64,000 nucleotides of DNA from a candidate division FCPU426 bacterium (GTDB taxonomy: Bacteria; Oederibacteriota; Muellerivitia; Muellerivitales; Muellerivitaceae), in assembly GCA_963847625.1 (NCBI GenBank), contig CAWKAR010000025.1, forward strand, positions 83,651 to 147,650, read 5' to 3'. A program made the position numbers and the translations under genes. Below are positions 1,772-48,652 of the stretch, one piece after another; the first letter of the stretch is position 1, and every line of letters begins with the position of its first letter. Under the pieces are notes generated by a model that was not told the origin of the DNA, made no database searches, and worked only from the letters and a program-made list of their open reading frames with translations.

Positions 1772-2512
1772 TCATTGGTAATGGTTCAGGGCATAAGAGA
1801 AACCTCCAACTTCTTTTAATCTTTTCCTGAACGCCTCAACAATAGCATCATTAGCATCAGGCACTTTTTTCATCCAACCAAACAAGGTGCTTTGAGTTTC
1901 ATATACTGCTTTTTTCCAAGAATCATTGCCCCAAAAAGCATCCATTCTTGCGGCTTGTGAAGGTTCTACCATTTCTGGATTTTTCCAAAGAACATTTTGA
2001 TTCATATCCATTACTGGGAAATTAAGAAAGATCTCGATACTCTTCATTTGTCCAGCTTTATGAATCACATCCCATTTTAAATGAAGACCATAGGGGTCAA
2101 GTAGGCATAAGCCACGACGATAATCTTCGAAACGGATTTTAGGGAAAATTTCATTTAATAAAATTTCATTACAATTACCTTCAAATACTGAAACGTTAGT
2201 ATTTTCTCGGGTTAATAGTTTCAGCAATTTGAATTTATCTTTATTTATGTCGATAAGATAAAGCTTTTTAAAAGGGGGTTCTATATTCAAGGCATTTAAA
2301 GGACTACCAGGTATAAACTTTCCGCTTTCTCTTGAGAGATGGACCCCTGCACCCGCAAAAGCATCTAGATAGGCATGTTCTAGGTTTTTTTGGGAAGTTA
2401 ATATCTTCGAATATGCCGCAGCGTAATCTTTAACAATATCGAGTTTGATTTCGGACCAATAATTAATCGTGTCAAAATTAAGCATCCCGAGTTCCATAAG
2501 TAAGTGCAACAC
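1772..2512 (-). CDS. TcmP-like 'three-Cys-motif partner' protein, the usual partner of DUF5131; native start probably Met at 2485
   Basis: About 250 aa with DAFAGAG and LLDPYG motifs, immediately upstream of and co-oriented with the DUF5131 gene. The first 9 codons of the called ORF lie inside the IS30 copy. Confidence 0.55.
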   Translation of the reverse strand: MLHLLMELGMLNFDTINYWSEIKLDIVKDYAAAYSKILTSQKNLEHAYLDAFAGAGVHLSRESGKFIPGSPLNALNIEPPFKKLYLIDINKDKFKLLKLLTRENTNVSVFEGNCNEILLNEIFPKIRFEDYRRGLCLLDPYGLHLKWDVIHKAGQMKSIEIFLNFPVMDMNQNVLWKNPEMVEPSQAARMDAFWGNDSWKKAVYETQSTLFGWMKKVPDANDAIVEAFRKRLKEVGGFSYALNHYQ

Positions 2513-3540
2513 TTAGTGTCTGAAGAAGGCCGCATGAATAGGATATGCGGCTATGAAAAAGAAATACAAGCATTTAAGCGTTGAAGAAAGAGATCATTTA
2601 TCCGTCTTGAAAGGAAAGGGTCTTAGCCTTCGAGCAATTTCACGCGCCTTGAAGAGGTCTCCTTCCACCCTCTCCAGGGAACTCAAGCGCAATGCTCCCC
2701 CTATCCGTTCTGGTTATTATCTTTCTCATCGAGCCCATCAACGGTATGTTGACCGCAACCAACAACGAGCACGCCGTTTACGCCTGAAAACAAAACGAAT
2801 TCGTGCCTACGTCCGTCGTCAATTGAAACGAGGCTGGTCTCCAGAACTCATTTCAGGTCGATTAGGTCACCTACGGCCTAAGCAAACCATTGGTCCTGAA
2901 GCTATCTATCAGTGGGTTTATGCTGAAGCCACTGAGCTGATTCCTTGCCTAGTTCGACACCACCGGCGACGATTCTCATTTGGCCATAGCCGTAAGCACG
3001 CCAAAAACCATATCCCAGGCCGTGTTTCCATCGATAAGCGCTCCGAGATCGCCAATCAACGCAAGCAATTCGGCCATTGGGAAACCGACACCATGGTCTC
3101 TCGTCAGAGTAAAGTGGCTATGCGGGCTCTCGTCGAGCGTCAAAGCCGTTTTTCCAAGTTGGGAAAGCTCAAACGAAAGACCGCTCGCCAAATGAGTCAT
3201 AGCCTCAACCGCGCTTTATGCCGCTTCCCTCAAGACGCCCGCCTGAGTCTGACCTATGACAACGGAACCGAAAACACCAACCACTTGGAAACCAACCACG
3301 TGCTTGGTACAAAATCCTTTTTCTGCGCCCCTTTCCACAGTTGGGAAAAAGGTACGGTGGAAAATACTATCGGTCTTGTCCGCCGCCATTTGCCTAAAAA
3401 GACTGATCTTGCTAAAGTGTCCTTCAAAGAATTCAGGACCATAGAAAGATGGCTCAATAACAGGCCCAGGAAATGTTTGGGCTTTAAAACTCCGGCGGAA
3501 GTCTTCCGGCGAAGTGTTGCACTTACTCCGTGAATTCGGC
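2486..3540 (+). mobile_element. IS30-family insertion sequence, copy A (1055 bp)
   Basis: DNA-identical to 47459-48513 in inverted orientation; imperfect terminal inverted repeats containing agtaagtgcaacactt; single transposase ORF. Confidence 0.85.
2553..3533 (+). CDS. IS30 family transposase (HTH + DDE)
   Basis: 326 aa; N-terminal HTH (LSLRAISRALKRSPSTLSRELKRN); DDE core with HWETDTMV; identical to the protein at 47466-48446. Confidence 0.9.
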   Translation: MKKKYKHLSVEERDHLSVLKGKGLSLRAISRALKRSPSTLSRELKRNAPPIRSGYYLSHRAHQRYVDRNQQRARRLRLKTKRIRAYVRRQLKRGWSPELISGRLGHLRPKQTIGPEAIYQWVYAEATELIPCLVRHHRRRFSFGHSRKHAKNHIPGRVSIDKRSEIANQRKQFGHWETDTMVSRQSKVAMRALVERQSRFSKLGKLKRKTARQMSHSLNRALCRFPQDARLSLTYDNGTENTNHLETNHVLGTKSFFCAPFHSWEKGTVENTIGLVRRHLPKKTDLAKVSFKEFRTIERWLNNRPRKCLGFKTPAEVFRRSVALTP

Positions 3541-4293: not shown

Positions 4294-5124
4294 TTAGTTA
4301 AGGCCCAACTTTTCGGCCTTTGCTTCCATTGGGGTTTTTCCCCCCAAACTGCTGTGCGGTCTCTGCCAGTTATACACCTGCCTCCACCAATCCACGACTA
4401 CCTGGGCCTCCGCTTTTGAAAGAAAAATTTCTTGGTTCAGGCACTCATCCCTAAACTTTCCGTTGAAACTTTCGATGAATCCATTCTGCCATGGACTCCC
4501 TGGTTCGATATATAGCACCTCTACGCCCTTCTCCTCAAGCCAGTTCCTCAGTTCTTTCGCCACGAACTCTGGCCCGTTGTCCACCCGCAGGCACTTTGGT
4601 GTCCCGTACTCCGTCATCAACTCGTCCAGCGTCTCCAGCACGTCCCGGCTTCTCATTCGCTTCTCCGCCCGGATCTCCAAGCATTCCCTAAATCCTTCAT
4701 CCAACACCGTCAAAAACTTCACCTTTCCCCCGAACCATGTCAGGTCATGCACGAAGTCCATCGTCCACACCTCGTTGGAACCCAAAGCCGGGTGGGGCCT
4801 TCTCCATTCCGTCGGAACCCTCTTCTTCCTGGGTCTCCTGCGCGGTAATTGAAGCCCTGCTACCTGGTAGAGCCTCTCCACCCGCTTGTGATTCACATCA
4901 AGGCCTCTGCGTTCCAACATCCACAACATCCGAGGGCTTCCGAAACGTCGGTTTCTTTGCGCTAACTTAACCATTTCCTGCAGGATCACCTGGTTCAACG
5001 GATCTTCTGGCTGGGCCTCATATCGAAAACTCGATCGATTTACCCCAAGAACATCACAGGCTCGTCTTTCCGGTACTTCCTGAGCCTTCAGGGCTTCCAC
5101 CATGCCTTTTTGCTCCTCGATCAA
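4294..5124 (-). CDS. IS3 family transposase OrfB (rve DDE integrase), expressed by -1 frameshift from OrfA
   Basis: 276 aa with integrase core YIEPGSPWQNGFIESFNGKFRDECL. Confidence 0.85.
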   Translation of the reverse strand: MIEEQKGMVEALKAQEVPERRACDVLGVNRSSFRYEAQPEDPLNQVILQEMVKLAQRNRRFGSPRMLWMLERRGLDVNHKRVERLYQVAGLQLPRRRPRKKRVPTEWRRPHPALGSNEVWTMDFVHDLTWFGGKVKFLTVLDEGFRECLEIRAEKRMRSRDVLETLDELMTEYGTPKCLRVDNGPEFVAKELRNWLEEKGVEVLYIEPGSPWQNGFIESFNGKFRDECLNQEIFLSKAEAQVVVDWWRQVYNWQRPHSSLGGKTPMEAKAEKLGLN

Positions 5125-5390: not shown

Positions 5391-5437
5391 CTTTCCCCTC
5401 CCGATCTATAATCCAAAACTAACATATTTTTGGATCA

Positions 5438-6494
5438 GTTTTCGGGGGAAAGGTCAACCTTAAACTCCCAAGGCCATAGAACGCGCAAAGGAAGAAAATG
5501 GGAAACCAACGCCATCCATTATATTTTGAGAAATGAAACTTATACTGGGGTTTTGATCTTTAATAGGGCTCATAAAAATTCAGTAAAACCCATAGAACGT
5601 CCTGAAAGCGAAACAATCCGCATTGAAAATGCCCACCCCGCCATTATTGACAGAAAAACTTTTCTTTCTGCCCAGTTTTTCATAAAGCTAAGAAGTCCTA
5701 AGGTTGTTCACCCGCGAACTATCCATAGCGACTATATTCTAAGCAGTTTCCTTTTATGTGGAGAATGCGGTTCTCATATGGTTGGAACTACCGCCAAGGG
5801 TTCTAAATTTTTTTATTATTCCTGCCGGAATCACTTAAGAAGGGGTTCTCATGGATGTGGGCAAAAATCTATCAACAAGGCCAAACTTGAAGAAATGGTT
5901 TTCACGCAACTTAGAAACCGCATTTTGACTGAAGAAAATATCTCAGAGTTAGTCAAACTGATTAATAAAGACCTTTCAGCTTATAAACGCGATTATTCAA
6001 ATCTTTTGAAAGAAAATGATTCCCGAATTTTAAAAGCCAGGGAAAGCCTTCAAAAACTTTACTACGCCCTTGAAACTGGAAAGCTTGACCTTGATGACCT
6101 TGCCCCAAGAATCAAAGAATTGCGTTCTCAAATTTCCCAATTAGAGCAGGAAAAAACCAAGATCGAATCAGAGGCAAATGAGCCAACCTTGGAAATAAAC
6201 GCCTCGGAAATCGGCCCTTACGTTGAAGATTTGCGGGGACTATTGGAGAAAGGCACCATTACAAAGCGGAAAGGTTTCTTAAAGTCTTTTATAAAGCAAA
6301 TTGAATATAGCCACCAAAAAGGCGGCTCTATTGAATACACCATTCCTCTTGTGAAAAAACCTAATAACGAATTATCAAATATTGAAGTTCTGCCTATTAA
6401 CCAAAATGGCGGGGTTGACGGGGCTAGAACACGCTTTCTCGCACCTGACAAACAAAATTTTCAGATGAACCAACTTCTTATTCCTGGGTTCTGA
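5438..6494 (+). pseudogene. Large serine recombinase remnant lacking the N-terminal resolvase catalytic domain
   Basis: Recombinase domain (ILRNETYTGVLIFNR), zinc ribbon (CGECGSHM...YYSCRNH...HGCG) and coiled-coil, but no catalytic Ser domain. The reconstructed pre-insertion frame begins MFSGERST at the IS3 insertion site. Confidence 0.65.
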
Positions 6495-6612: not shown

Positions 6613-8001
6613 TTAGATGTTCCCAAGATCGATATCCACCCACGAGGGCGTCGGGGTGACCGTCGGCTGGGGCGAAGAAGCCTTTTGGGTTTCGGGGGAT
6701 CCCCTCAAAAAGACCGCGAAATAACCCGCTTCCCCATTCGAGAAAGCCTCGGCGGGATAATTGGTCTGGATTCCGCTGTTCACCGCCTTGGAAATCCACG
6801 CAAGCGACGACCGGATGGCGTCGAGCCGGTAAAAGTTGGGGATCAAGTCGAAGGACCGCTTCACATAATCCTTGTAGGACTTAAATTGGTAAGGCCCGGC
6901 GGGATCCGCGAAGGAGGCCGCAATGGGGGCATGGATATCCAGTAGCATCATATTCTTGATCCCCATTTCCCGGCTGAGGGCCGCCAGAACGGAGGGGGGC
7001 GTATACAGGGTCCAAATCACCCCAAAGCGGTGGTGTTTGTCGGTGAATAGGTAGGACCGGGCCACGTCGTCATAAAAGGAACAAAAAGCATTGGGATACT
7101 CGTCCGGGCCCGGCTTGCCGTTTTCCACCACCATGAAGCGGTTTTGAACGAAGGTTTTTATTTTTTTCTTATCCGGCAATTTTCGGTAGGTGCCCAGGGC
7201 CATGTGTCCGTCCTGGTACAAGGTGAAGGTGGCCATCTCGGGCTGGGGCGGAAGGAAGGTCCGGGAATCAAAACGGAACCCGGCATAACGCATTTGTTTT
7301 TCCGGCACGCCCCAATTGACCACGTTGTCGACGCGGTCGAAGATGCCGTTGAGGATGCCCAGGAGCCCGGTGGAGTCCTGGATCAAGGCGTAATCGGTTT
7401 TCCCCCCATTCCTTTCCTCCCGGGTCGCCATAGGAAGCCATTCCCCCATGTGGGTCCGGTCCCCGCCCTTGAACTGGATTTTCCCGGGGTAATAAAGGCA
7501 CCGGGCCTGCGCCTGGTCGAAGGAAAGGTAAAAAACCATGGCCCTCTCCCGCATCAGGCCCCCATTGTCCAAAAGAAGCTTTTTTCCCCTGGGACCCAAG
7601 CCCTTAAAGCCCTTGACCCTCGCGAGAAACCGCTTGAAATACTTTTTGCCCCCCGCGTGATACTTGACCCGAAACCCGGCGTAAACGGCGGTCGCGGCGG
7701 GGCTGTTGGCCTTGAAATCCACGGCGCATGGGGCCGCGAGCGGGAACCCTCTCTTGTTCGCCCGGGCCTGCCGTGCCCAATCCACGTGAAGGATGAAGGG
7801 CCGCTCCCTCCTGGTCAAACGCCTGGGATGGGGAATGCGGATTTTGGAAAGTCCCTCGTAAAGCCACTCCCCGGCTTTCTTGTAAAAATAGCCCCGGAAT
7901 TCCGAAACTTCTTTCGCGCTTGCTTTCCCGGCAAGGAATTGGATGAGGCAAAACACCAGTGTCAAAAGGGCAAAGATGAAAATGATTTTATTTTTTTTCA
8001 T
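6613..8001 (-). CDS. Secreted hypothetical protein, last gene of the A2M-LDT-PBP1C operon
   Basis: Signal peptide MKKNKIIFIFALLTLVFCLIQFLAGKASA (alternative upstream start at 8025); about 62% GC; overlaps the pbpC stop by 14 bp; no family recognised. Confidence 0.5.
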   Translation of the reverse strand: MKKNKIIFIFALLTLVFCLIQFLAGKASAKEVSEFRGYFYKKAGEWLYEGLSKIRIPHPRRLTRRERPFILHVDWARQARANKRGFPLAAPCAVDFKANSPAATAVYAGFRVKYHAGGKKYFKRFLARVKGFKGLGPRGKKLLLDNGGLMRERAMVFYLSFDQAQARCLYYPGKIQFKGGDRTHMGEWLPMATREERNGGKTDYALIQDSTGLLGILNGIFDRVDNVVNWGVPEKQMRYAGFRFDSRTFLPPQPEMATFTLYQDGHMALGTYRKLPDKKKIKTFVQNRFMVVENGKPGPDEYPNAFCSFYDDVARSYLFTDKHHRFGVIWTLYTPPSVLAALSREMGIKNMMLLDIHAPIAASFADPAGPYQFKSYKDYVKRSFDLIPNFYRLDAIRSSLAWISKAVNSGIQTNYPAEAFSNGEAGYFAVFLRGSPETQKASSPQPTVTPTPSWVDIDLGNI

Positions 8002-10357
8002 TCTCGATTTTCTTGTCGTAAACAAGGATATTCACTTTGTCCGCGCGGCCCTGGGAATCCAGCACCGATACTTCCCATTTCCCCTGTTCCGGGCTCCAGA
8101 AGAAAAGCTTATCCGGCTTTCCTTGCGCGATGAGCCGGCCATTCACGAACCAGTAAACCTGGTCCACGTCGGGGCCGGCCTGGACCGATAACGTCATCCG
8201 CTGGCTTTCCAGGGGTATCCCCTGCTGGATCTCGTATTTCCCCTCGGATTTGGGCGATTGGATATGGGGCGTGAAGCGGGAGAAGAAATAAGCGCAATCC
8301 GGATTATGCCGGGGGATGGCCTCGAATTTTTTCCCGTGGCTCCTGAGATACCGCGTCACGTCCGGTGGCCAGATCTCGAAAATTTTGGAGTAGTATTCCT
8401 CTGGCTTGCCCGTCATGCAATAACGGCAAACTTCCTTTCCGTCTTTTTTCCTGATCCAAACCCTTCGGTGGACCTGGCAGGGATGGTTGTCGCTGACGGC
8501 CGGGATGAACATATCCTCGATCACGTCCTTGCAATCGTCTCCGGCCGGCTGGCCCGAGAGGGCGCATATTTTGCGGAATTGGACTCCCGGCGGCCTCTGG
8601 AACCAGGAGTCATTGGAGCGGGTCAAGGCGTTGAAGAGATTGATGACCACCGGGGCCGCGGCGTCGTGGCCGATCAAGGCGGGAGACCCCTGGTTATCCG
8701 TGTTGCCGAGCCAGACCCCGATGGTGTAATCCGGGTTATAGCCGACGCACCAGGCGTCCCGGTGGCCGAAGGAGGTGCCGGTTTTAAAGGCCACCTTTCC
8801 GCGGGTGGGTGAAAATTCCCAGGAAGCGGGAATATCCGTTCTTTCCACCTTGGCCAGCATTTCGGAAATCATGTAGCTGGATTCCCGGGAAAGCACTTCC
8901 TTTCCCTTCTCCGGGCCTTGGGTTTCATCCTCAAAAAATCTCAGGCTTCTCATCTTCCCGCCGTTGGCCAGGGCCGCGTAAATCCGGACCATTTCCTCCA
9001 CCGTCATGGGATAGGCCCCTAAAACCACCGACAGACCCGGTTCCAACTGGCCCCTTTCCCGCCCGATACAGCCGGCTTCCTTGATCCAAAATTCCAGGCC
9101 GTCGTTTCCTATGGATTCCAGGCTTGATTCCAACCCCACCGCGGGAATGTTCAAGGAGCGGGCCAAGGCGTCTTCCGCCGGAATGAGCCCCCCGTACTTC
9201 CCCTCGTAATTGGCCGGTTTAAAGCCGCCGTAATCGCGCGGGATATCGAAAAGCGTGGTCTTGGGTGTGATCAACCCGTGGTCCATCGCCAAGCCATACA
9301 GGAAAGGTTTCAAGGCCGATCCCGGGGAGCGGGGAATGTTGGCGCCGTTTACCTGCCCACCCCTGGGGTCGTGGAAATCCGGGCTTCCCACGTAAGCCAC
9401 CACTTTCATCGTGTGGTTGTCCACCATGATGACCGCGCCGTTATGGACCCCCTGGTTTCTGATGGGCGCTATGGCGCCTTCCAGCATTTTCAAGGCCAAT
9501 CCCTGTAAATTGGGTTGGAGGGCCAGCTGGACCACTCCCGGGGCATGGCTGGATAGATGGGCCGCTCGAGCCACCAAATGGGGAGCCGGATTGGGATTCA
9601 AGTACCGGCCTTTGGGCAGGATGGAATGGAAAGCTTCCTCCGCCTCGATTTGGGGTGGCTTCACGATGGGAAGGATTTGCCCAAGGACCTTGTCCCTTCC
9701 CTCCCTCGCCTTTTCGGGGAACCGGTCGGGACGCCGCGCCGCGGGCGACCGGGGAAGGCTGATCAAAAGCGCGGTTTCACCCCAGGAAAGGAGCTTGGCC
9801 GGCTTGCCGAAATAAAGAAGCGACGCCGCACCCACCCCCTCGATGTTGCCCCCCATGGGAACGCTGTTCAGGTAGAACTCGAGGATCTGTTTCTTGGAAT
9901 AGCGGGCCTCCAACTGCATGGCCCGGAAAGTCTCGATTCCCTTGGCCCAGAAGGTCCGGGGCCTGCGGTCCATCAGCTTGGCCACCTGCATGGTAATGGT
10001 GGAAGCCCCCGAGAGGATTTTATGGCGGGTCAAATTCAGGACGAGGGCCCGGACCAATGCCGCCGGATTCACCCCGTAATGCCAGTAAAACCACCGGTCC
10101 TCGTAGGCCATAAAACCCCGGATGACCTGGGGTGAAATTTCATCCAGTTTCAAGGGAAGGCGGTACTTGCCACTTTTGGAAAGGGTGAGCCGCAATAGGC
10201 TTCCGTCGGAGGCCAGGTAGGCCGTGGAATAGTCGCCGTGAAGTTTCTTAACCGGAAGGGGCACAAGACGGAGAAGGACGTAAAACCCGGCCAGGCACAA
10301 CAAAAAACGGAGGATGAACCGTTTGTGATTGCTAAAGGGCCATTTCATAGTTTGCAT
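7988..10357 (-). CDS. pbpC: Penicillin-binding protein 1C (transglycosylase/transpeptidase with PBP1C C-terminal domain)
   Basis: 789 aa; N-terminal TM anchor; GT51 motifs (RFYWHYGVNP, GASTITMQ); transpeptidase SxxK/KTG (AFKTGTS); C-terminal BiPBP_C-like domain. Confidence 0.85.
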   Translation of the reverse strand: MQTMKWPFSNHKRFILRFLLCLAGFYVLLRLVPLPVKKLHGDYSTAYLASDGSLLRLTLSKSGKYRLPLKLDEISPQVIRGFMAYEDRWFYWHYGVNPAALVRALVLNLTRHKILSGASTITMQVAKLMDRRPRTFWAKGIETFRAMQLEARYSKKQILEFYLNSVPMGGNIEGVGAASLLYFGKPAKLLSWGETALLISLPRSPAARRPDRFPEKAREGRDKVLGQILPIVKPPQIEAEEAFHSILPKGRYLNPNPAPHLVARAAHLSSHAPGVVQLALQPNLQGLALKMLEGAIAPIRNQGVHNGAVIMVDNHTMKVVAYVGSPDFHDPRGGQVNGANIPRSPGSALKPFLYGLAMDHGLITPKTTLFDIPRDYGGFKPANYEGKYGGLIPAEDALARSLNIPAVGLESSLESIGNDGLEFWIKEAGCIGRERGQLEPGLSVVLGAYPMTVEEMVRIYAALANGGKMRSLRFFEDETQGPEKGKEVLSRESSYMISEMLAKVERTDIPASWEFSPTRGKVAFKTGTSFGHRDAWCVGYNPDYTIGVWLGNTDNQGSPALIGHDAAAPVVINLFNALTRSNDSWFQRPPGVQFRKICALSGQPAGDDCKDVIEDMFIPAVSDNHPCQVHRRVWIRKKDGKEVCRYCMTGKPEEYYSKIFEIWPPDVTRYLRSHGKKFEAIPRHNPDCAYFFSRFTPHIQSPKSEGKYEIQQGIPLESQRMTLSVQAGPDVDQVYWFVNGRLIAQGKPDKLFFWSPEQGKWEVSVLDSQGRADKVNILVYDKKIENEKK

Positions 10358-10603
10358 TACAGCGTTTTTTTATGGGACAGGCTATCCTTTTTTCCCAATA
10401 GTTGTTAAATGAGCAATCCGCATATTACAGGGACAAGGAAATAACGTGCTTTGCCGCATTGACCTAACAGTTGAGATTCGCAAAGCTTTAAACAATATTT
10501 AGTGGACAAAGTAAAGTGCTCGAAATAAATCGTCTTTAAGCTTTGATGATTCTTCTAATACGCCTACCCGTCTCGGACAAGTCCAAAATTCAATTCCCTC
10601 AAT

Positions 10604-11166
10604 TTAGTTCTCTTTTATCACAACAATAGTCCCTATCTTGCAATAAGTTTTAATTTCATCTATTTCTTCGTTTGTGACGGCAATACATCCCTTTGTCCAA
10701 TCAATAAAATGATGCAAGAAACCTAACCATCCGAGACCCTTCTTGAGTCCATGAATGCCTACAATGCCGCCTAATTTTGTATCACTCGGTGGAATTTTAT
10801 GACTCTGTTGGGCTTTTATAATATTTCCAAATTCATTTTGATGAATAACTCCATCGTGAAAACCTTTCAGGGCATCCGCTTCATTGGGATAACTGAGATA
10901 AATAAAAAAATGAAAATCGCTGGTATTGTTCATCGCAACAACTCTATACACCCCAACAGGCGTTTTATTGTCACCGGCAACTTGTTTGGCACCAGCGCCT
11001 CCTTTGCCAATCGAACACTTGTATTGTTTAAAAATTTGGCCGCCTTTTTTACTTTAAGGGCATGTTCCGATTTAATGATTTCTAAAGAAAAATCCTTGGC
11101 GTAAATCAATCCATCAACTGAGTGTAAGAAAATTGAAAAGAAGAAAATAAATTTAAGATATTTCAT
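10604..11166 (-). CDS. L,D-transpeptidase (YkuD domain) with a frameshift in a T6/A6 run (plus strand 11045-11050)
   Basis: N-terminal signal peptide MKYLKFIFFFSIFLHS; after a 1-nt shift the frame reads KGGQIFKQYKCSIGKGGAGAKQVAGDNKTPVGVYRV...HG...WTKGCIAV (catalytic HG/SHGC-type). AT-rich (about 37% GC) inside a 62% GC block. Confidence 0.7.
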
Positions 11167-11203
11167 GGATGGTATTTTCAAGTTGGTATTTTTAGGGGCG
11201 CTT

Positions 11204-14200
11204 TTAATATTTCGCGGGAGCAATATTAAGCGTTTGGCCCTCGTTGGATCGCCCGAAGATTTCAGGGTCGTACATGGCTTCGGCCTCCAAACCAGGCACC
11301 TGGAACGATCCGGGCGTGACCGCCCGGACGCTGTAGGAGAAGGTCTGGTCCCCGTCCACGTCCTTCGAGAAGAGAAGAACCCGGTCATCCCTGAAATCCT
11401 GGAAGACCGGCGAGAAGCTGCATTCCGGCTCGAACGAAAGGTTGCCCCGCGAGGAAAGGCGCGGATTGTCCACCTCGAACCCGGCCGGCAGGAGATCCAC
11501 CACCACCAGGTTGTCCAGCGGCTTGGTGCACTTCACGCGCAAGGTCACCACCACCAATTGGCCCTGGGAAATCGACCCCAGGTTGATGGTATTCCCGTTC
11601 TCATCCCTGTACTCGCGGCTGACGGTCAGGCCATTCGCGACCGATTCCTTTTCCGATTTCAGCTTGGTGCCCTCGGCCATGAGATGGTAATAAAGGTCGC
11701 GGTCGCCGGTATTCTTCAGGTCAACGTCCTTGCCCGAAATCTTCTCGTCCTTCACCACCGCCGTCTCCCCGCTCAATTCGGCGGGGGCTTCCCCCTTCAC
11801 GGACCATTGGGCGCTCAAGGGATAGTTCTGGGTGGTGGCCCGGACCGCCTTCCCAACAGCCATGAAACAGAGGGCGTCCTCCTGGGTCGTGCCGTACCAG
11901 CCGTGCCCGAATTCCTTCAGCTTCTTGCCGAACTCGATGATGAGCTTGGGGATCTCCGGGTTCTTGGGGTCCGCCTCGGTCATGGCCAAAAGGTAAAGGG
12001 CCATTTCCCGGTTGGGGGAGAACCAATCCCCGTTCATCAACCGGGCCAGGCTGGTGGGAAGGTAATGCGCGGGAAGAAGGGATAGGGCGGTCGTGCGATC
12101 GCCCAGCGCGGAATAGGCCCGGGACAGGTAACAGCGCTCGCTCAACCGGCGCGCCTTCGGGTCCTGCATCTGGTCCTTCATGGCGGCCATCGACTCGGGA
12201 TCGGGCCGGTCGGCCAGGACTTTCAGGTAAAGCACGTAGGCGCTGTCCCCGATCTCGACGTTTTGCTTTCGGCGGTCCAGCCTCCCACCCCCTTGCCGGT
12301 GACCTTGATGGCCCCAAGCCGGTTCATGATCCTATCCAGGACATTCTCGTTGACCTGGTAGCCCTGCTTTTTCGCCGTGAGCAGGAATTCGGAGACGTAA
12401 TTGGACAAGTATTCCCCGCCGCCCTCCTCCTGGCCTGGCCAGAGCGCGAAGTCCCCGTCGGACAACTGCATCTTGCCCAGGTCGTCAATGGCGTCCTGCA
12501 CGTACATTTCCACCGCGTTGGCCCTTCCGCTGAAACGCCCCGTCAAAAGGCCCATATCCTTGAAGAAAAGAAGAGGGAAAGCCTGTGAGGTCCTCTGCTC
12601 GGCACAGCCATAGGGGTAATGGATGAGGTAATCCATGCTCCCCAGGAACGTCAACAAGGGGCTGGAAGAAACCGTCATGCGGACCTTTTGTCCTTGCCGG
12701 ATGAAGCCGCCGGGAACCGACAGGACCTGGGTCCCGCCCGCCCCCAACTGGCCGAAGCTGATTTGCGTCGTCAAGGGATTGCCGGGCCTCACCGCCAGCT
12801 CGGTTTCCACGTCGAAATCGTTTCCATCCTCATCCGTGGCGGTCACCTTGAAATGCGCCACGCCAGCGTCCATTTGGGCCTTGGCGTGGAACAGGATCTG
12901 TTTTTGCCCCTCCTCGCCCAGGCTGATATCCTGTTTTTTCTCGCCGTCGACCGCGACGGGACCGCTGGCGGAGAGGCTGACCTTGATGCTCTGGGGTTTC
13001 TTCGTGTTGTTATAGACCAGGACCGGCATGTCAATGTGGTCCCCGGGCGCGAGAAACCGGGGAAAGGACGGCTCCACCACCACCGGATCCGCCACCTTCA
13101 CGTGGAAGGCGGAAGCCCCGAATTTATTCGCCTGCACTCCCAGGGCCATGACCCTTACTTCCCCGTGGAACTTGTCCGTCGGGAAGTGGTAGCTGACCTT
13201 CCCCTCCTTGTCCGCCGTCAGGATGCCGGAGAAGAGGGCGAAGGATTTCACCCGTTTGGCTTCGATGGGGTTCAAATGGCGGAATTGGAAGGATTCACCC
13301 TCGTCCCCGCCCACCGCGTCCTTGCGGTCCAGGTCGGGAAGGATGTCCTCGAACAAGCTCAAGGTGGAGGTCGTGAGGCCCCGCTTGCGGTAGAAATACT
13401 TGAAGGGGTCGGGCGTGGTGAAAGCGATGATCTGGAGGATTCCCTCGTCCACCGCGGCCAGGACCACGCTGGCCCCCGGCGTGCCGGTGGACAGGTTCAC
13501 GTCGATGCCGTCCTTGGACTTTACGGACTCGGGCGCTTCCCACTTGAAGTCGATCTCATGGCTGGTGGTGTCCATCGCCAGGGTCGCGATCCCGAAGGAA
13601 GCCATCGGCATGGTCCTTAATTCCTCATTGGGCTTGCGCACCAGGAGCCCCACCACGTAGGCGTTGGGCATGTAGGCGGTCTCGACCGGGGGAAGGCTCA
13701 GCACGTTGAGCCCCGCCGCAACCGGCACCGTCGAGGTGTAAAAAACCCTCTCCCGTTCGATGGAAAGGATCAGCCTTCCGGCGAAGGGCGCGCGCACTTC
13801 CAGCTTGGGGATCTCGCCGGACTGGTATTGGGTCTTGTCGAGGTTGAGGGACAGCTTGTCCGGCTCGCCCAGGTCGGCGGATTCCTGCTGGTTCTCCTCT
13901 TTTTCCTCGGGTCCGGACACCGCCACCATGACGGAACTGCGCATGGACTCCTCGTTGCCCAGGTAGATGGTGTATTCCCCCGGCTTATCCGGCGTGAAGG
14001 TGTAGGAACCCTTTCCGTCCACGTTGACTTCTTTGCCGTCCACCACCTGCTCGTAATAGGCCGACTCGTAGCCGCGTCCGGACCATCCGCTCCGCCTGAA
14101 AATGGAATACCAGACTTTGCGCTTGACGAGAAGGATGGCTTTTTCCACCTTGGTCGGGTCGCCGTCCGGGGTGATGGCCACGTACTTGATGTGGACTTCC

Positions 14201-17200
14201 TTATTGGGGGCCGATTCCTTACCTTCCTCGCACTTGAGGCCCAGGTAATAGGGATAGCGGTGGACCCGGATGGCGGCGTTGGCGCCGACGGGCCTCCCCC
14301 CGGTGTCCAACACCTCGGCATAGACCTCAGCCTGGAGCATGGAAGGAGGAAGCATGGAGATGGGCACGGGTAATTGCACGTCAAAATTGCCCGCCGCGTC
14401 CGTCGACCCGTCCGGGACCTTCAAACTTTCGCCCGTGAACTGCCGGGTGGGGTCGGAAAAATGGTAGCTTTTCCATTTCTTGTCCGTGAATTCAATCGGG
14501 CTCAATTGGACGGCGGTTCGCACCTTCAGGCTCACGCCCGGCGCCCCGAAGAGCTGGCGCACCGCGACCCGGAAGGAGAGTTGCTCCCCGGGATTGGCGG
14601 TTTTCTTGGCGGGACGCACCTCGACCTTGATCTTGTTGGGGATGAATTCCTCCACCTTAATGGAGGTGGACGCCAGGTGGACCCCGTTCTCCAGTCCCAG
14701 CTCGACGTTCAGCATGCCGGTGGTGATGTCCTCCTTAATGGGAAAATTGAAGGTCGCCATGCCGTAGTCATGGAGTTTGGCGGTGAGTTTGGCCACCTGG
14801 TTCCCGTTTTCATCCTTGATGACGAGGTTCACGGGAAGGTCCTCGGGGATATCCAGGTCCGCCCGCCTCACGACCGCCGTGAAATTGGCCTTGTCCCCGG
14901 GGCGGTAAAGGCCCCGGTCCGAGGTCAGGAACGCGTCCCATCCGGTGGATTGGAAAGGATCCCCGCTCACGTCGAAGCGCGATTGGTTCAAGGCCGGCTG
15001 GTCCAGGCGGAGGTAGGACCAATCGTCCCCCAATTGGGCCACGACGACATAGGCGTTGAAATGGTAGGGGTTGTTCTTCCAGTCCTTGAACCAGACCCGT
15101 CCCTCGGGATCCGTTTCCTTTTCCTGGATGACCTGGTTAGTGTCGGAAATCAGCTGTAATTTCACCCCAACCGCCGGGGTCAGCCTGGAGATGGAAAGCA
15201 CCTGCACCAAAAGGTCGTCGCCCGAGTACTTCAGCATCATGCCCAGGTCGGTGCAAAGGAAGGAACGGGAGTCCCGTCCGCCGCCGTTGGCTCCGTTCAG
15301 GGAAACCACGAATAGCCCCTTATAAGGCTGGCTGTGCCATTGGCTGAAATCCAGGTCCGTTTCCGTTTCCTGGTTGATCTGCCCTTCGTTCACCTTCACG
15401 TTTCCGCCCCAGACATGGGCGCCCAACCCCGCGGTCGAGCCAGAATCGGACTGGTAGTTATTCTCGCTGGGTTCGTCCCCTTCACCCTCATCCTCGTCCT
15501 CTTCCTGTTGCCGCTGGAAATAAGCGCGGCGCTGGGGCCGGCGGTAAGAGTGCCGGTAGTAGTAGTTGGGGTAACTGCGCCAGTTCTTCAGGAAATCGAC
15601 GATGTTGTTGCGGAACACTTTTTCGACGCCGACGGAATAATTGTCCAGGTTCATGGTTTTAACCGAGACAATCTTTTTTCCCTCCAGAGGGATCAACCGC
15701 CCGTTATCGCCGAAACGCACGTAGGGCTCGATATCTTCCAGACGGATATCCTGGTCGCTGGCATGCTCCAGGATTTCCCCGGAAATGGCGCGCAGGCCCT
15801 CCTTCACGTGGATTTTGTAGTTGATGTTGGGTTGGAAATCCGCTTTCAAGACGGCGTAGCAATATTCCGTATCCACCTTGAAGGGAATCGCCGGTTCGAT
15901 GGACACGTTGTTGCGCACTTGGGAGGAAGAAGCCGGAAGCGTGAACAGGATGGAGATCAGCGTGTTTCCCGGAACATGGTGGAGCTTGATCCCCTCCACC
16001 AGCATCTTGGGCTTGGCGGGAAGGGTGATGGTGCTTTGGTACTTGTCGGCCAGGGGCTTCCCGCAATCCACGCAGGACAAGCCCGCCGCCACGGTTACCG
16101 TCAGGGTCTGGGGTTCGGTTTCACGCACCAGCCCCCCCGCCTTGAAGAAAAACCGCGTGGGAAGGGTTCCCTGTTCCAGCTCGTAGTTCAGGGAGCTTCC
16201 CGCCCGGGATACGGAAAGGCTCTGTTTGAGCAGGTTCATGTCCACCGGATAGTTGAACTCGATCTCGCCCACCAGCTCTTTTTCCGTTCCCTTGATGAGG
16301 TCGTAGGTATAGAAAAGCCGGCTGGAAACCACCTTCATGGCTTCGGTCGAAAAAGTGGTATTGGAGCTTTTTTCCAGGAAAAATTGTTTCGAGGAAAGCT
16401 TACCCGAGACGTTCAAGTGCACCTGGTAAGTGGTGGCGGGTTTCAGGGGAGCCGCGGGGGTGAAAACCAGGGTCGTGGAATCCTCCAGGCGGCTGGTTCC
16501 GGGCAGGGGGGGTGTAATCTCGAACGCGGAGTCCAAGGCGCTGATGACTTGGACGTCCCCGGAGAATTTGGCCCGGATGACCGTATTGGCCGAGGTCACC
16601 ATTCCCCGGGGGGTAAAACTGATGATATGGGTGGTGAAAGTATTATAGATCAAAAGATAAATCAGCCAGGCCGCGGCCAGGCACGCCAATATTAGGGCGG
16701 CCTTCCGGGCCAGGGGTTTCTTGGATAACTTCAATACGCTTTCCCCGCCTTTGGCTCCTTTTTGCTTGAGGAATCGGGCCGCCTTCTGGAAAAAAGGGCT
16801 TTGCCGCAGAATTTTCCATTTGGAACGCCAATCCAGGTCCGGCAATCCGTCCTTCTTGGCGATTTTTTCCGAAATTCCATAAGACTCGTAAAGACGGGTC
16901 AGATAGATAATCAATACTTGCAGGGACCAAGCCGGGTTTCTTTTGAGGAGGGCGAAAGGGATGGGGAGAAGGGCGTAGAGCCAGATCCAAGCCCGGAGGT
17001 TGCGGTGCTTCGTTTCCCGCATCCTTTCCCAAAACACCAGGAACAGCCCGGAAAGGATGAGGTGCAGCGCCAGCATCCAATTGTTTCTCTCGAAAAAATA
17101 GGGGGAATAAAAAGGGTTCATGAGGAACGTCAACCCGCCTACGGTGTAAAAAGCGAGAGCGCGGATGAAGGTTTGGGGTAATTTCAGGATTTGGGATCGG

Positions 17201-18186
17201 ACCTGGGCGGTTAAAACCGTCAGGACGAGGATAACCATCGGGATGATCAGGGAACCGGTCTGGTTTTGAATGTAAATAAATCCCAAGAGCGAACCCAGGC
17301 TCAGGAAAACTTCCTTCGCGTGGGGTTTCAGCCAGGGATTCCAGCCCCAGAGCAAACCCAAAACCAGGATTTGGAAGGGCCAGCCGAAATTACCATGGAA
17401 GAAGTAATAATATGGAAGCATCGGGACAACGGCGAAAAGCGATAGATAAAGCCGCCCCCGGGTGGCATTCGCTTCCTTCAACTTTTCCCACAAAAGAAAA
17501 ACCAGGGCCGAGAGCAGGAAATGGTGGATCAGGACGACCGGACCCCACCCTTTAATGACCTGTTGAACCCCGCGGACCGTTTCAAAGATGGGAAGTTCCG
17601 GCCAGTAGCGGTAGATCCAGTCCGTGAAATAAAACAGGACAAAGGCTTTTAGGATTTCGGGGTCCCGGCGGAATAAGAACCGGCGCAGCAGGGGGGAGAC
17701 GCCCCAGAAAATGATGGAAATCCAGTAAACGGGGGGAAGCCCCATGAGGCAAACCGCGAAGGCGGCCGCCGTGAATACCGGCGGAAGAATATTGGAGTGG
17801 AATTTTTCGAGCGCCCGGATTTTTTTCAAATCATCCCGGACCATCTCCCATCCCAAAAGAATCGTGGAATACACCACCAGGGCCAGCGCCGTGATCCAGA
17901 CAATCTTCAGGTGGGAGCTGCTCGTCGGGACCTTATCGAAAAATTTCGGGGTCAGAAAGGAAAAGATCATCATGAGGGAAAAACCCTCAACCGCCCGGAA
18001 AGGATACTTCAGGTAAATCTTGCGCAGGAGGCCGACCGCCATGAACAACGGCAGGAACAGCCACAAATTTTTATTTTGGATCAGGAGGACGGCATTGGGG
18101 TGGTTCATCCAATTGGGAATGATTGCGACAAGGGCGATTAGAACGGTGATTCCAAACCAGGCGTTTAATATTTTCCTGGGAATCAT
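11204..18186 (-). CDS. Alpha-2-macroglobulin family protein (YfhM-like) fused to an N-terminal polytopic membrane domain of about 500 aa; frame broken once near 12289-12293
   Basis: Thioester motif GCAEQ near residue 1850; C-terminal thioester-domain remainder and receptor-binding-like domain continue in ORF 11204-12235 (QNVEIGDSAYVLYLKVLADRP after a 1-nt shift in the C5/G5 run); about 12-14 predicted TM helices in the first 500 aa. Confidence 0.8.
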
Positions 18187-18230: not shown

Positions 18231-19367
18231 ATGAAACAAAAATTGATTTTCTGCAACCTTGTCATTCTTCTTGTCCTGGCCTCTCGGGTAGGTCACGGCC
18301 AGGAAAAAAACGCGTTCCTTTCGGTTCGTATCCTTGAAAGACTAAAACTGCAGGAATTGGAGGTTCAGTCCCCCGCGAATCATGGCGTTTGGAACCGAAT
18401 CAAATTAGCACCGGGCCAAATGTCCGTCAACGACAAAGCACAAAAAGAGGCCTCCTGGGGCTCTCCGGATTCAACCGTTAAAATAAGGGCTTTAAATTTA
18501 AGGCGAATTTATCCTGGGATGATCGTCATCACAACGCAGGCCGGGGAAAAGGGTCCGGAACTGCTCATTTTAAACCAGGTCTTCCTGGGGGATTACACGG
18601 CTTGTGTCACGGCCTTTGAATCCGGTTATGACCCTTCCCAGCCGGAATACTTGAAGGCGCTGGCGGCCATCATCCGCGCTTACGCCTCCTCACACCGCAA
18701 ACGTCACGACTCCTATGATCTCTGCGACCTCTCCCATTGCCAAGTTTACCAAGGGCTCCCAAGCCATTTCAGTTTTTGGAAGCAAATGGCGGACGCAGGC
18801 ACGTCATTCAGGTTTCCTTCATCAATAGATCCGAAATCCATTTATTTCCACCGCTGTTGCGGAGGTGTTTTGGAGTCAGCGGACCAACTCTGGGGGGGAG
18901 CGCCTTCCGCCAGCCGGACGGGTCCAGATGAGTGGGATGGCAAAACCCTCTGCCAGGACGATCCTCTATTCCAGTGGACTTCCTCGACGGAGGTAAAAAA
19001 CGTCGAGTCCGTCCTGAGAACCATGGCCCGTCTCCCTTCAGCGGCTGTCTTGAGAACATTCAGGGTCGATAAAAAAACAACTCATGGGCGGAACAAGGTA
19101 TTGTCGGCGCGATTCCAAATGCCGGAAGGGGGAACCAGGGAAATCCGCGAAAATGCCATCCATTTCGAATCCGAATTCGGGAAACACTATGGCTGGCGCG
19201 TCTTTCCTAGTGATTTGTTCGGGATCAAACGGGAAGATGATATTTTCAAATTTACCGGTCGGGGTCTTGGCCACGGTGTAGGGCTTTGCCAGTCCGGCGC
19301 CTTGAAACTGGCCCAATTGGGGTGGACCTGGGAAAAAATTCTTAACTTCTATTTTCCTTCAAGGTGA
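18231..19367 (+). CDS. SpoIID/LytB domain protein
   Basis: Signal peptide; conserved SHRKRHDSYDLCDLSHCQVYQG motif of the SpoIID/LytB family. Confidence 0.7.
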   Translation: MKQKLIFCNLVILLVLASRVGHGQEKNAFLSVRILERLKLQELEVQSPANHGVWNRIKLAPGQMSVNDKAQKEASWGSPDSTVKIRALNLRRIYPGMIVITTQAGEKGPELLILNQVFLGDYTACVTAFESGYDPSQPEYLKALAAIIRAYASSHRKRHDSYDLCDLSHCQVYQGLPSHFSFWKQMADAGTSFRFPSSIDPKSIYFHRCCGGVLESADQLWGGAPSASRTGPDEWDGKTLCQDDPLFQWTSSTEVKNVESVLRTMARLPSAAVLRTFRVDKKTTHGRNKVLSARFQMPEGGTREIRENAIHFESEFGKHYGWRVFPSDLFGIKREDDIFKFTGRGLGHGVGLCQSGALKLAQLGWTWEKILNFYFPSR

Positions 19368-24396: not shown

Positions 24397-27300
24397 TCAT
24401 TTTAAAACCAATAGCTTGAAGATTTTTCGCTCAAAGTTAATGTCAACCACGACGTAATAAAGTCCGTTGGCCAGCGGCATCCCCCAGAAGTCCTTCAGTT
24501 CGACAGGCAATTGATAAATCCCGGGTGGCAACTGGGAAAATGAATTTTCATTCACTTTGCGGAAAACCGTGGTAAAAATTTTCAGGCTCACTTGGTTGAC
24601 CAGATCATTTAACGCGAATTGCAGGGTCACAGGTTCCGGACCCCTGGCGGGGTCGGGATAGAGAATGGTTTTCACTATTGGGGTGGCCGTGACCGTGGGT
24701 GAGTAGGTGGAGGTCGATGTCGGCGTAAAACTCGCGGTGAATGTCGCGGAAGGCGTCATCGAATTTGTCGGCGAAGAAGTAATGGTATAGGTGCTTGTCG
24801 GAGTGCTGGAATAAGTGGCCGTTGGGGTTTCGGTGACAGTGGGGGTCGGGGTCGGGGTATCCGTGGGTAAGGGTGTTGTGGTTGAGATCGGGGCGTCTAT
24901 TATTTGGGTTTTAGTGGAAGTGGGTGTTCCGGTCGAAGTGAAAGTGGGAGTGGAGGTCGCGGTTGGCATGCCGATAGTGGTGTTGGTGGGTGTGGGGGTA
25001 ACGGTGGGGCTGAGGGTGGATGTGGGTGTCGGTGTGGGAGTGTTAGTGATGACATCGATGCATGTGTATACGTGATAGTTTCGGATATGCGCCATGTTGG
25101 GGTCCAATAAAAACTCGGTCCGGAACCCCACACCGCCTGAAGTGTACGGCGGCGAAGCCGTCGTGTCGGTCAAGCTGTAAACCAATTGATCGCCGTTTCC
25201 ATCGTACAGGTTCACATAGCAATAAAAGGTCGAGCCGGCAACCACCACCTTCAGGTGGACCCAATTGCCCGGCGTGTAAACCGGCGCGGCAAGCCCCGTG
25301 CCGAAGCCGGCGGGCGGCAGGTAGGTAAAGGCGCTTCCCCCCGCCCCGGTATCCTTCTGGATCTGCCAATGCGGGTTTGCCCCGTTCTCCGAGTTTCCAT
25401 TCCATTGAAAGATATAGCCTGTCACGTTGGCCTGTTCCAGGAATTCCAAGCCAAAAAGGCCGTAATTGTCCGTCCGATGGTCCAGTTTGAAATCCGCTTC
25501 CACCGTGTAATTGCTGTAAGCCCAGCTAAACTGCGCGGCATTCAATTGGACGTAGGAATGAAGCGTAGCGCCGGCGGAAGAGGATTGCTGCAATTCGCCG
25601 CCATTGACCGCGTAATTCAGGGAGGCCGCGGTCATGGAGACGGCGCTGCCCAAAGTGTAAAAAGTGTAATTCGAAAGGCTGGCGCTGCTGGGGAAAGTGT
25701 CAAGGAACTCCACTAGTTGCTGGTTTGAGCCGCAAACAATCGCGGGTGTATTCGTGGGGGTCAGGTAAATTCCAGTCGGCGTTATGGTTGGGGTGCAGGT
25801 GCTGGTGGGGGTGGAAGTCGGCGTGGGGGGAACGCAGGAAATACTCAATGAGACATTGTCGAAAGTGGCGCTGGCCAGGGAATGAACGCCGGCGCTGGAC
25901 ACGGCGAATCCCACCGGGGGGTTGGCGCCGATGGTGGTGAGGGTGACCGCTCCCACCTGGGTCCAGGTCGACCCGTTGACGGATTCATAACCCGTATAGA
26001 TGTTTCCCGAGCGCTGGAGTTGGAACCAAACCGGGGCCGGCGGATTGGGCCCGCCGAACGACGTCGTGTTGCCGCCCTGGGTGGAGCGGTAGGCGAAAAC
26101 CGCCTGGGCCCCGTTATAAGCCATGCCCAGGTAAACGTAAGGGGAGTCATCCGCGGAATTGTCCCGGAACATGAGTCCGGCCTGGTTGTTCGAACTACCG
26201 TTTTGGATACCGGTCAAACGCGCCGTCAAGGTGCTGTACCCGCAGGAAGGCTGGCTCACGAACTGGAAGGAATCCTGCTCGATACCGCTTAAATTCATGC
26301 CGATGCCGAACCCCGCCCCGTTTACCGTGAAGGTTCCGCCGGAATAACTGCTGCTTCCCAAAAGACGCATGTACTTCAATTCCAAGGGTGTGGCCGTAGT
26401 TTGCATGAGCCAGCCGATGTCCTGGTCCACCCATGGGGAAGGCAGGGTGGAATTTACGTAGATGCTGATGGGGCAGGAAAACTGGGCCGTTCCCAGCTTG
26501 TTGATGGCGTGGGCGGTAATGAAATGGCTGCCCGACGGGACTAGGGGCCAGTTGATGTCATAGGGGGAGGAGGTGGAGGTTCCAAGGAATTGGCTGTCCA
26601 CGAAAAAATCCACTTGGGCTATGCCGGCCGTGGAAGCCGCCGAGGCAGTCAACGCGAGGGTGAGGGGGCCGGTCATGACCGATCCATCCGGGGGGCTGGT
26701 CAGGCTCACCGTGGGCACGTCCAGTCCCGAAGCCGGCGGAACGGAAGCGGCCATAGGAGGCGCGGTTTGGTTGATGGTGCGGGCGTTGTCCTCGGTGTTG
26801 GCCACTCCCGTGGCCACGCCCAGGTAAGTCTCAAGGGGGGTGGAGAAATAGGGGGTATAAACCCCGGGCGCATAGGCCATGATGGTTCGGTATTGGACGC
26901 CTTGGGAGGTATAGCGGTTGCCCGCAGAGTAGGAATAAACACCCGGTCCGCCGTTTGCGAAATCGTGGCCGCACCCAAGGTTGTGTCCCATTTCGTGGAT
27001 CATCGCCTCGGCGAAAATCACGTGTTCCATGCTGTAATGGCCCGGCAAAAAACCAAGGCCCATGACCGGGTCCGATCCCGCCACCAGCATGTTCACCATG
27101 ACCGCCCCATAAGAACTTTGTATGGCCTGGATAGCGGAAATGGTTCCGTTCCCCATGTTGGGCAGGTCGGTGAACATGCTTCCCTGTTCGGTGTAATTGA
27201 CCTGGCCGGAGTAAACCAACTGCATCTGCGCGTTGATGCCGCTGTTGAAGTAGACCATGTTGTTGTAGAAAACGACCGTATCGATGAGGGATTCCATGGC

Positions 27301-27966: not shown

Positions 27967-28175
27967 CGACTCACCAATCGATCGGATGAAAAATTGAAAC
28001 CTCTGAAAAACTAAAATAAAGCGGCAAACAGAGGTTTCGACCCCAAAGATTTCCGCAGGAAATTGTGGGGTTACCTTCAATGGTTGCTGAAAAAGTTGGC
28101 GATAAGCCGACTTTTTCAGAGGTTACAAATTAATAATTTCCGAGCCGCTTTTCAAAATGACTCATAATATAGTGT

Positions 28176-29913: not shown

Positions 29914-30702
29914 TCACTCTTCTTTCTTCCTTCCCCATTTTTTTACTTTCGGAAAAACCTTCGGATAAAAAACTTTCACCAGGAATAATCCATTGGATGG
30001 CAAAGTAGGTCCCGCCTTTTTCCGGTCCTTGGAATGGAGGATAGGTTTCATGTCCCCGGGCTTGAATTTGCCAAGGCCCACGTAAAGGAGGGTGCCGCTG
30101 AGGATTCTAACCATCTGGTGAAGGAAGGATTCGCCGAGGTATTCAATAAAAATATTGTTTCCTCTTTTTTTAACCGTGACCCTGATCAGGTTTCTTTTGG
30201 GGTTGGCCCTCTTCCCCAAGGTACCCCTAAAAGCCGTAAAATCATGCCTCCCCTGCAATTCCTTGCCCGCTTTCGCCATGGCCGGCACATCCAAACCATG
30301 ACGAACATGATGGTAGGTGTGCCGGTCAAAAACGGTGTAATCCCTCGTATTTCGGATGACATAACGGTAAAGTCTGGCCTTCGCGTGATAGGTGGCGTGA
30401 AAGGTTGCCGGTACTTCCTTGGCGGATACGATCCGGATGTCGTGTGGTAATAGTTGATTTAATACCTTGTGAATCCGATGGGTCGGCAAGGAAGAAAAGG
30501 TGTGAAAATTGGCGGTTTGGCCTAGGGAGTGGACTCCCGAGTCGGTTCTTCCCGCCACAAGAAGGTCCACTGGATGCCCGCAAATCTTCCGCAAGCGGTC
30601 CTCTAGTGTGCACTGGATGGTGGGGGCTTGGGCTTGCTTCTGCCATCCGGAATAGGCGGTCCCGTCATACTCCACCGTCAATCGGATGTTCCTCATCCTC
30701 AC
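29914..30702 (-). CDS. truA: tRNA pseudouridine(38-40) synthase TruA
   Basis: N-terminus LTVEYDGTAYSGWQKQ and catalytic Asp region RTDSGVH. Confidence 0.8.
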   Translation of the reverse strand: MRMRNIRLTVEYDGTAYSGWQKQAQAPTIQCTLEDRLRKICGHPVDLLVAGRTDSGVHSLGQTANFHTFSSLPTHRIHKVLNQLLPHDIRIVSAKEVPATFHATYHAKARLYRYVIRNTRDYTVFDRHTYHHVRHGLDVPAMAKAGKELQGRHDFTAFRGTLGKRANPKRNLIRVTVKKRGNNIFIEYLGESFLHQMVRILSGTLLYVGLGKFKPGDMKPILHSKDRKKAGPTLPSNGLFLVKVFYPKVFPKVKKWGRKKEE

Positions 30703-48513: not shown

Positions 48514-48652
48514 TATATTAAATTCAAGTAATAACATGTAACAAGGATATTTTGACGTCCATCATTAGAAAGATCTAAGGCACCAACGCCTCGATGGCTC
48601 AAACTCGTTTTAATATTAGAAAGCCATTGCAATCCATTGGAACCCGGAGAAT

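Follow-up and report, generated by a model that had tools for sequence, protein, structure and literature searches.

Bacterial alpha-2-macroglobulins (A2Ms) are held at the inner membrane either as lipoproteins or via a partner protein (PMC3735191, PMC3328433). The pairing of A2M with the penicillin-binding protein PBP1C has been described (PMC3328433), where the positioning of A2M at the inner membrane and its cooperation with PBP1C were put forward as a hypothesis from gene adjacency. Escherichia coli YfhM (ECAM) and Salmonella SaA2M are lipoproteins with an N-terminal lipobox, whereas Pseudomonas aeruginosa MagD, a YfaS-class A2M of the Mag complex, depends on a membrane protein, and not on a lipid of its own, for its place at the inner membrane (PMC3735191). 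MagD has neither a thioester nor a lipobox, belongs to a six-gene mag operon without pbpC, and relies on the partner MagB, which has a single helix. The locus described here comprises four coding regions, all on the minus strand, within positions 6613-18186 of a 64,000-nucleotide stretch (hereafter the window) of contig CAWKAR010000025.1 from candidate division FCPU426, a lineage of uncultured soil bacteria. Its central gene encodes an A2M preceded by a long membrane-embedded N-terminus, and the best explanation, which we regard as quite probable, is a single inner-membrane protein of about 2327 residues that joins a polytopic domain, a linker, a seventeenth helix and an A2M ectodomain of the YfhM/ECAM class and is paired with PBP1C. 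The literature searched contained no description of an A2M whose N-terminus is a polytopic domain. The parts of this gene and its conserved neighbours are as follows, in window coordinates.

11204-18186, minus strand: complete A2M fusion gene, 2327 residues after repair of a G run, with its ATG at 18186.
16882-18186, minus strand: polytopic membrane domain, residues 1-435, with 16 predicted transmembrane helices and both termini predicted inside.
16702-16881, minus strand: basic linker, residues 436-495, predicted cytoplasmic from its charge count (17 lysines plus arginines), in frame in all homologues.
16639-16701, minus strand: seventeenth transmembrane helix by hydropathy, AALILACLAAAWLIYLLIYNT, which holds the cysteine of an ALILAC string.
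11204-16638, minus strand: A2M ectodomain, predicted periplasmic, with Big_5, bMG3, MG2, bMG5, bait region, A2M, thioester domain and bMG10 (Pfam).
12595-12609, minus strand: thioester motif GCAEQ, residues 1860-1864, also present in the orthologues L004 and L005.
12284-12286, minus strand: G run one base short, which splits the A2M reading frame (GGG in the window, GGGG in a second assembly, L006).
7988-10357, minus strand: PBP1C, 789 residues, TIGR02073 at 658.6 bits against a cut-off of 494.2, with the Pfam domains Transgly, Transpeptidase and BiPBP_C.
18231-19367, plus strand: divergently transcribed gene for a protein with a SpoIID/LytB domain, a conserved neighbour of the fusion, syntenic in L004, L005, L002, L001 and L010.

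As assembled, the A2M gene is distributed over two open reading frames. The larger (12223-18186, 1987 residues) carries Big_5, bMG3, MG2, bMG5, A2M_BRD and A2M from residue 521 on (Pfam), while 11204-12235, in another frame, is the C-terminal end of the A2M including bMG10 (Pfam) and not the transpeptidase. The earlier note had treated the larger frame as the A2M gene, and the frame is indeed there, but it is not the whole A2M, the C-terminal part of which lies out of frame. An independent assembly of the same strain, the 9.2-kb contig L006 (run ERR10755942), is 99.98% identical to window positions 14653-5444, the differences being one substitution and one extra G at 12284-12286. Addition of this G yields an uninterrupted 2327-residue A2M reading to 11204, and the orthologue in L004 likewise has one more base at the same site. 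Because both L006 and L004 carry the extra base, the true gene is taken to span 11204-18186, and the break in the window is most likely a homopolymer error of assembly or sequencing. With at least one such error in the window, the boundaries of open reading frames in this region should not be taken at face value. At the other end of the gene, GAGG precedes the ATG at 18186, and the N-terminus of the fusion is conserved among homologues.

The ectodomain belongs by sequence to the thioester-containing, pbpC-linked class of A2Ms represented by YfhM/ECAM, with protease trapping as its predicted activity. When the A2M part of the L004 orthologue was used as a phmmer query, it matched Salmonella A2M (4U48, 5.6e-93) and E. 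coli YfhM (4RTD, 1.6e-90), aligning to chain residues 258-1634 of 4U48. The features shared with YfhM and SaA2M include the series of macroglobulin (MG) domains, the bait region, the A2M domain with its CxEQ thioester motif, MG10, a pbpC gene downstream, and a predicted periplasmic location with an inner-membrane tether. The class feature that it lacks is the N-terminal lipoprotein signal peptide with a lipobox cysteine as anchor. In its place the fusion has about 495 extra N-terminal residues (16 helices plus linker) and a transmembrane helix without a conserved cysteine, and the region before MG3 is about 200 residues longer and contains an acidic low-complexity insert. The departure from the lipid anchor of characterised bacterial A2Ms that had been suspected from the window's letters is thus borne out. 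MagD offers the nearest functional analogy, in that it would represent, in concept, the unfused version of an arrangement whose membrane partner is fused here; however, no sequence relation exists between the MagD system and the 16-helix domain.

The N-terminal domain itself is rich in aromatic residues, with tryptophan, phenylalanine and tyrosine making up 17.2% of residues 1-435. Hydropathy in the window reveals 16 hydrophobic segments followed by a seventeenth at residues 496-516, and averaging over four homologues places 16 segments within residues 5-433 and the seventeenth at 492-518; the earlier expectation of 12 or more W/F/Y-rich helices in the first 500 or so residues therefore stands, at 16 plus one. 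With the N-terminus set inside, the predicted cytoplasmic loops of each of the four homologues contain 27-30 lysines and arginines, compared with 5-9 in the periplasmic loops, and the 60-residue linker contains 12-17. By the positive-inside rule, this charge bias suggests that the 16-helix domain starts and ends in the cytoplasm and that the linker is cytoplasmic, so that helix 17 would be able to export the A2M part. The domain also contains an internal repeat, in which a unit at residues 126-242 matches a unit at 243-395 (hhalign probability 92%, E 6e-7), each unit closing with a helix and then WE[KR]x[KR]E. The motifs NWMNHP, HxLL(S/T)xLxFxxWExLKE and WGW(N/D)PWLKPHA are kept in L010, at 36% identity. 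Ratios of nonsynonymous to synonymous substitution (dN/dS) among the window, L004 and L005 lie at 0.16-0.23 in the membrane domain, 0.13-0.25 in the linker and 0.07-0.15 in the A2M part, indicating that all three are under purifying selection.

Searches for a known relative of the membrane domain were negative. No family was recovered from Pfam and NCBIfam at permissive thresholds, where the window's domain was blank even at E<=10; a profile search of PDB sequences returned nothing, a word-indexed profile search for remote homologues found nothing outside the clade, and no paralogue of the domain occurs within the window or the fetched loci. BacA and PAP2_C appeared as candidates at E 0.07-0.9, in single homologues only, and were judged to be chance matches. 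Queried with residues 1-500, the word-indexed database yielded a single protein. In a phmmer search of 1.84 billion representative proteins there were five relatives, of which one is a fragment at 29% identity and the other four are either close relatives or fragments; none lies beyond the clade. The domain is in this sense an orphan family confined to an uncultured clade, and the homologue search, proposed earlier as a check on whether the arrangement is widespread, indicates that the arrangement is uncommon among A2Ms. P0005 (locus L003, 1131 bp; 27-31% identical), the remotest relative of the membrane domain, ends with a stop at residue 301 and has unrelated sequence beyond; the gene may be truncated, the end of the contig may be chimeric, or the protein may be a shorter form that stands alone.

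Further loci were obtained from the relatives' contigs and from a scan of GTDB genomes (L001, with protein P0001; L002, with P0002; L004; L005), L004 and L005 being genome bins labelled candidate division FCPU426. Intact open reading frames run from the membrane domain through the A2M C-terminus in L004 (9545-16531, 2328 residues) and L005 (6712-13533, 2273 residues). The assemblies of L001 and L002 contain many frameshifts, yet the fusion junction is in frame in both. A scan of JGI metagenomes with membrane-domain patterns gave no match, while a second scan, which used the conserved beginning of the A2M ectodomain as its seed, yielded contig L010, in which 552 stop-free codons (536 from the Met of the reading frame to the contig end) follow the divergent SpoIID-like gene. 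That frame passes from membrane domain to linker to helix to THIVSFTPRG...NTVIRAKFS, and is 36% identical to the window over residues 4-520. An in-frame fusion of A2M to a multi-pass domain of about 500 residues, as originally proposed, is accordingly present in L004, L005, L002, L001 and L010 as well as in the window, and the contrary possibility of a separate gene with its own stop was looked at and no stop was found between the parts in any of the six loci. The architecture is conserved down to 36% identity in the FCPU426-related lineage, and the fusion is a genuine variant of the A2M-PBP1C system, restricted to this lineage and carrying the orphan 16-helix domain.

The neighbours that travel with the fusion can be delimited by comparison. 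Nucleotide homology between the window and L004/L005 covers 19368-11204 (the SpoIID-like gene plus A2M) and 10393-7987 (pbpC) and nothing else, and L002, L004 and L005 all share the synteny of the SpoIID-like gene with A2M and PBP1C. The SpoIID-like gene lies 44 nucleotides from the A2M start. The pbpC gene lies 84-121 nucleotides downstream of A2M in L004 and L005, and in the window and L002 inserted genes alone stand between the two. On these comparisons, the conserved module consists of the A2M fusion together with the divergent SpoIID-like gene on one side and pbpC on the other. The PBP1C is a full member of its family (TIGR02073) with the BiPBP_C tail, its glycosyltransferase and transpeptidase motifs being intact (EDRWFYWHYG, SALK, SLN, KTG), and displays no notable difference from that family. 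A scan for promoters and terminators gave counts not above shuffled expectation. In L005, a GC-rich hairpin (GGCCGCGCCCCGGG...CCCGGGGCGCG) at 13535-13575, after the A2M stop and before pbpC, looks like a terminator or attenuator between the two genes. In L002, a 1480-residue protein with an O-antigen-ligase-like Wzy_C domain is encoded from 16216 onward, after pbpC, and is another large membrane protein beside the module.

With these elements in place, a working scheme can be proposed. Helix 17 would act as an export or anchor signal and put the A2M part on the periplasmic side. There, like its counterparts in E. coli and Salmonella, the A2M part would trap proteases while tethered to the membrane and would be paired with PBP1C in wall repair, and the polytopic domain would take the place of the lipid anchor. 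Several points weigh against this reading. The topology is derived from hydropathy and charge bias only; an AlphaFold2 model of residues 1-520, built from a five-sequence alignment without L004 and L005, reached a predicted local distance difference test score (pLDDT) of 41.8 and a predicted template modelling score (pTM) of 0.25; a GTG or TTG just upstream of helix 17 in four of the five close loci makes an additional isoform from an internal start possible; and a single long-read project supplied four of the five relatives, with frameshifts in L001 and L002, although L004, L005 and the JGI contig L010 are free of them.

Within the single-protein reading, the role of the 16-helix domain may be weighed further. 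It might do nothing except hold A2M in the inner membrane, as characterised A2Ms need only a tether (a lipid anchor in YfhM, the partner MagB for MagD) and no catalytic family signature was detected in the domain in Pfam, NCBIfam or PDB sequences. We consider this simple anchoring role unlikely, as helix 17 alone would suffice as an anchor, the extra 435 residues are kept under a dN/dS of about 0.2, and motifs conserved at 36% identity together with a repeated architecture are hard to square with a passive tether. Because the domain is large, internally repeated and constrained (NWMNHP, WGWNPWLKPH and the WE+x+E motifs), it probably does more than tether, and it may provide a platform for PBP1C or other partners or possess an activity of its own. 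The stronger proposal, that the domain constitutes a new membrane-protein family with its own activity, physically coupled to A2M, is tentative and on balance unlikely. In that case it might transmit to the membrane or cytoplasm the large conformational change that A2M undergoes on capturing a protease; alternatively, acting with PBP1C and the SpoIID-like enzyme, it might perform a lipid-linked wall-repair step or recruit one. If an activity of this kind is real, the fusion would be a "Rosetta stone" that exposes a membrane component so far missing from A2M-PBP1C defence and repair. The single fused protein, as we prefer to read it, would in either case hard-wire A2M to a large constrained membrane domain, implying that a tether can be much more than a lipid, and it supplies a candidate membrane partner as a testable handle on A2M organisation at the membrane.

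Two further genes accompany the module in the window.

10393-11203, minus strand: AT-rich insertion between A2M and pbpC, about 800 bp, absent from related loci.
10604-11165, minus strand: YkuD-type L,D-transpeptidase with a signal peptide, split by a frameshift at 11044-11050.
6613-8001, minus strand: 462-residue signal-peptide protein with a predicted fold like NAGPA/DUF2233, overlapping the pbpC stop by 14 nucleotides.

The insertion has a GC content of 0.38-0.44, compared with about 0.6 on both flanks, and nucleotide homology to the related loci ends at 11204 and restarts at 10393 (L004) or 10285 (L005). In L002, the corresponding spacer (10856-13668) contains a gene for a Sel1-repeat protein and two small genes, one of them encoding DUF2283, unrelated to those of the window. 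Because the window cassette, the L002 genes and the 84-121 nucleotides of L004 and L005 all differ at this place, the spacer between A2M and pbpC is an insertion hot spot. An L,D-transpeptidase gene does lie there, at 11165-10604, as had been reported, but it is small, frameshifted and part of a local insertion. An HG...GC motif is visible in it, and a -1 shift at A AAA AAG is needed to make the YkuD domain whole; the frame-corrected product matches positions 5-146 of the 146 of YkuD at E 9.5e-17 and 62.4 bits, the fragment scoring 32.2. The string A AAA AAG at 11044-11050 is a classical -1 slippery heptamer and is identical in L006. The 69 nucleotides downstream of the heptamer, examined for a stimulatory structure, fold no better than shuffled sequences (z = +1.19). 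Programmed -1 frameshifting was accordingly disfavoured for want of a downstream structure, a simple indel being more likely, and the break is likeliest a frameshift mutation or a homopolymer error shared by the two assemblies.

The protein encoded downstream of pbpC had been given as 470 residues with a signal peptide; such a frame is present, but its start is most likely the ATG at 8001, giving 462 residues. A 100% identical protein is on record, and the family comprises 27 unnamed proteins. The predicted model (pLDDT 79.5) matches 3OHG and NAGPA catalytic domains with a Foldseek probability of 1.0, at TM-scores of 0.33 (query-normalised) and 0.51 (target-normalised), and by sequence no Pfam family was matched, PF09992 included. 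A relation to the NAGPA/DUF2233 phosphodiester glycosidases is a prediction at the level of fold; the protein differs from them in the lack of a Pfam match and in about 150 extra residues. In L007, L008 and L009, homologues lie among other genes that include neither A2M nor PBP1C. The homologue at L009 891-2243 is 53% identical and comes from the same sequencing run.

It could be envisaged that all four genes form a functional envelope operon in which the transpeptidase and the 462-residue protein are working partners in this strain, an arrangement that the earlier note had put forward on the basis of co-oriented genes with short or overlapping junctions. The four genes do share the minus strand, the 462-residue frame overlaps the pbpC stop, and all four products are envelope-directed; on the other hand, a 246-nucleotide spacer follows the transpeptidase. 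The transpeptidase sits in a compositionally foreign, AT-rich insertion, and its frameshift is identical in both assemblies with no frameshift-stimulating structure. Neither added gene stands beside A2M-PBP1C in L002, L004 or L005, where co-occurrence of A2M, transpeptidase, PBP1C and the 462-residue gene was examined, and homologues of the 462-residue protein have unrelated neighbours. Mobile-element genes follow immediately downstream. A functional four-gene operon is therefore improbable and the proposed extension is not supported; instead, the transpeptidase and the 462-residue gene appear to be later, strain-specific additions to the conserved module.

Another possibility is that the locus yields two products, a membrane protein and a separate A2M anchored by helix 17 or by lipid, translated from an internal start near LARKAALILAC, with the long reading frame reflecting mainly read-through or coupling. 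The ALILAC string lies at the junction, as had been observed, but within the seventeenth hydrophobic helix, and its lipobox-like cysteine (residue 502) occurs in the window only: the matching segments are VLVLGG in L004, ALGLLA in L005, TFGVIG in L002, TLGVIV in L001 and AAGLAA in L010, so that none of the five homologues has a cysteine. A check for an internal ribosome-binding site and start showed a purine-rich, Shine-Dalgarno (SD)-like stretch, AAAGGAG...GGCGGGGAA, before GTA-TTG in the window. L004, L002 and L001 carry GTG at the equivalent codon, and L010 has a Met 27 residues before helix 17. Against these signals, L005 reads ATC-GTC and has no ATG, GTG or TTG at the candidate site, so that no start codon is conserved at the junction. 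The SD-like purine run can be attributed to the coding of a conserved K-G-x-x-G-G-E, and the string is absent from L010. Moreover, the parts are uninterrupted by a stop in all six loci, and the linker is under purifying selection as protein, while its synonymous positions vary normally. An internal start for a lipoprotein A2M was rejected on the conservation of both cysteine and start codon, and two separate products are, taken together, an improbable alternative to the single fused protein.

An assembly artefact, in which a homopolymer error joined a membrane-protein gene to a normal A2M gene, is hardly credible: the window does have one such error inside A2M and the related contigs L001 and L002 are rich in frameshifts, but the junction keeps its frame in six sequences, between which 20-64% of residues differ and one of which comes from a separate JGI project, the linker and helix (some 80 codons) are preserved at the protein level and stop-free in all six, and the search of 1.84 billion representatives revealed no stand-alone membrane-domain copy touching an A2M gene. 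Because of the conserved in-frame junctions, the dN/dS values, and a start with GAGG and a conserved N-terminus, both this artefact and a separate upstream gene can, on the available sequences, be excluded for practical purposes.

Several mobile elements surround the locus. The 462-residue gene is followed directly by genes for an IS3-family transposase and a truncated serine recombinase (window 4294-5124 and 5430-6494), the recombinase having the Recombinase and Zn_ribbon_recom domains and no resolvase domain. Two 100%-identical inverted copies of a 1066-bp IS30-family element, each encoding a 326-residue HTH_38+rve transposase, occupy 2475-3540 and 47459-48524 and bracket a 43.9-kb segment that includes the A2M block. 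The GC content of this segment is mostly 0.45-0.62, falling to 0.32-0.41 in its last ~3.5 kb (44-47.4 kb) and outside it, and the SecY/RpoA ribosomal cluster at 50-64 kb lies within the part with a GC content of 0.32-0.41. The bracketed arrangement might reflect a composite element or a join made during assembly, or it might be a substrate for inversion. Elsewhere in the window, a 1227-residue protein with weak similarity to metzincins (Mep72/CpaA-like) is encoded at 24397-28080, and a 747-residue TMEM260-like protein with GT-C and TPR regions is encoded on the same strand at 30699-32942.

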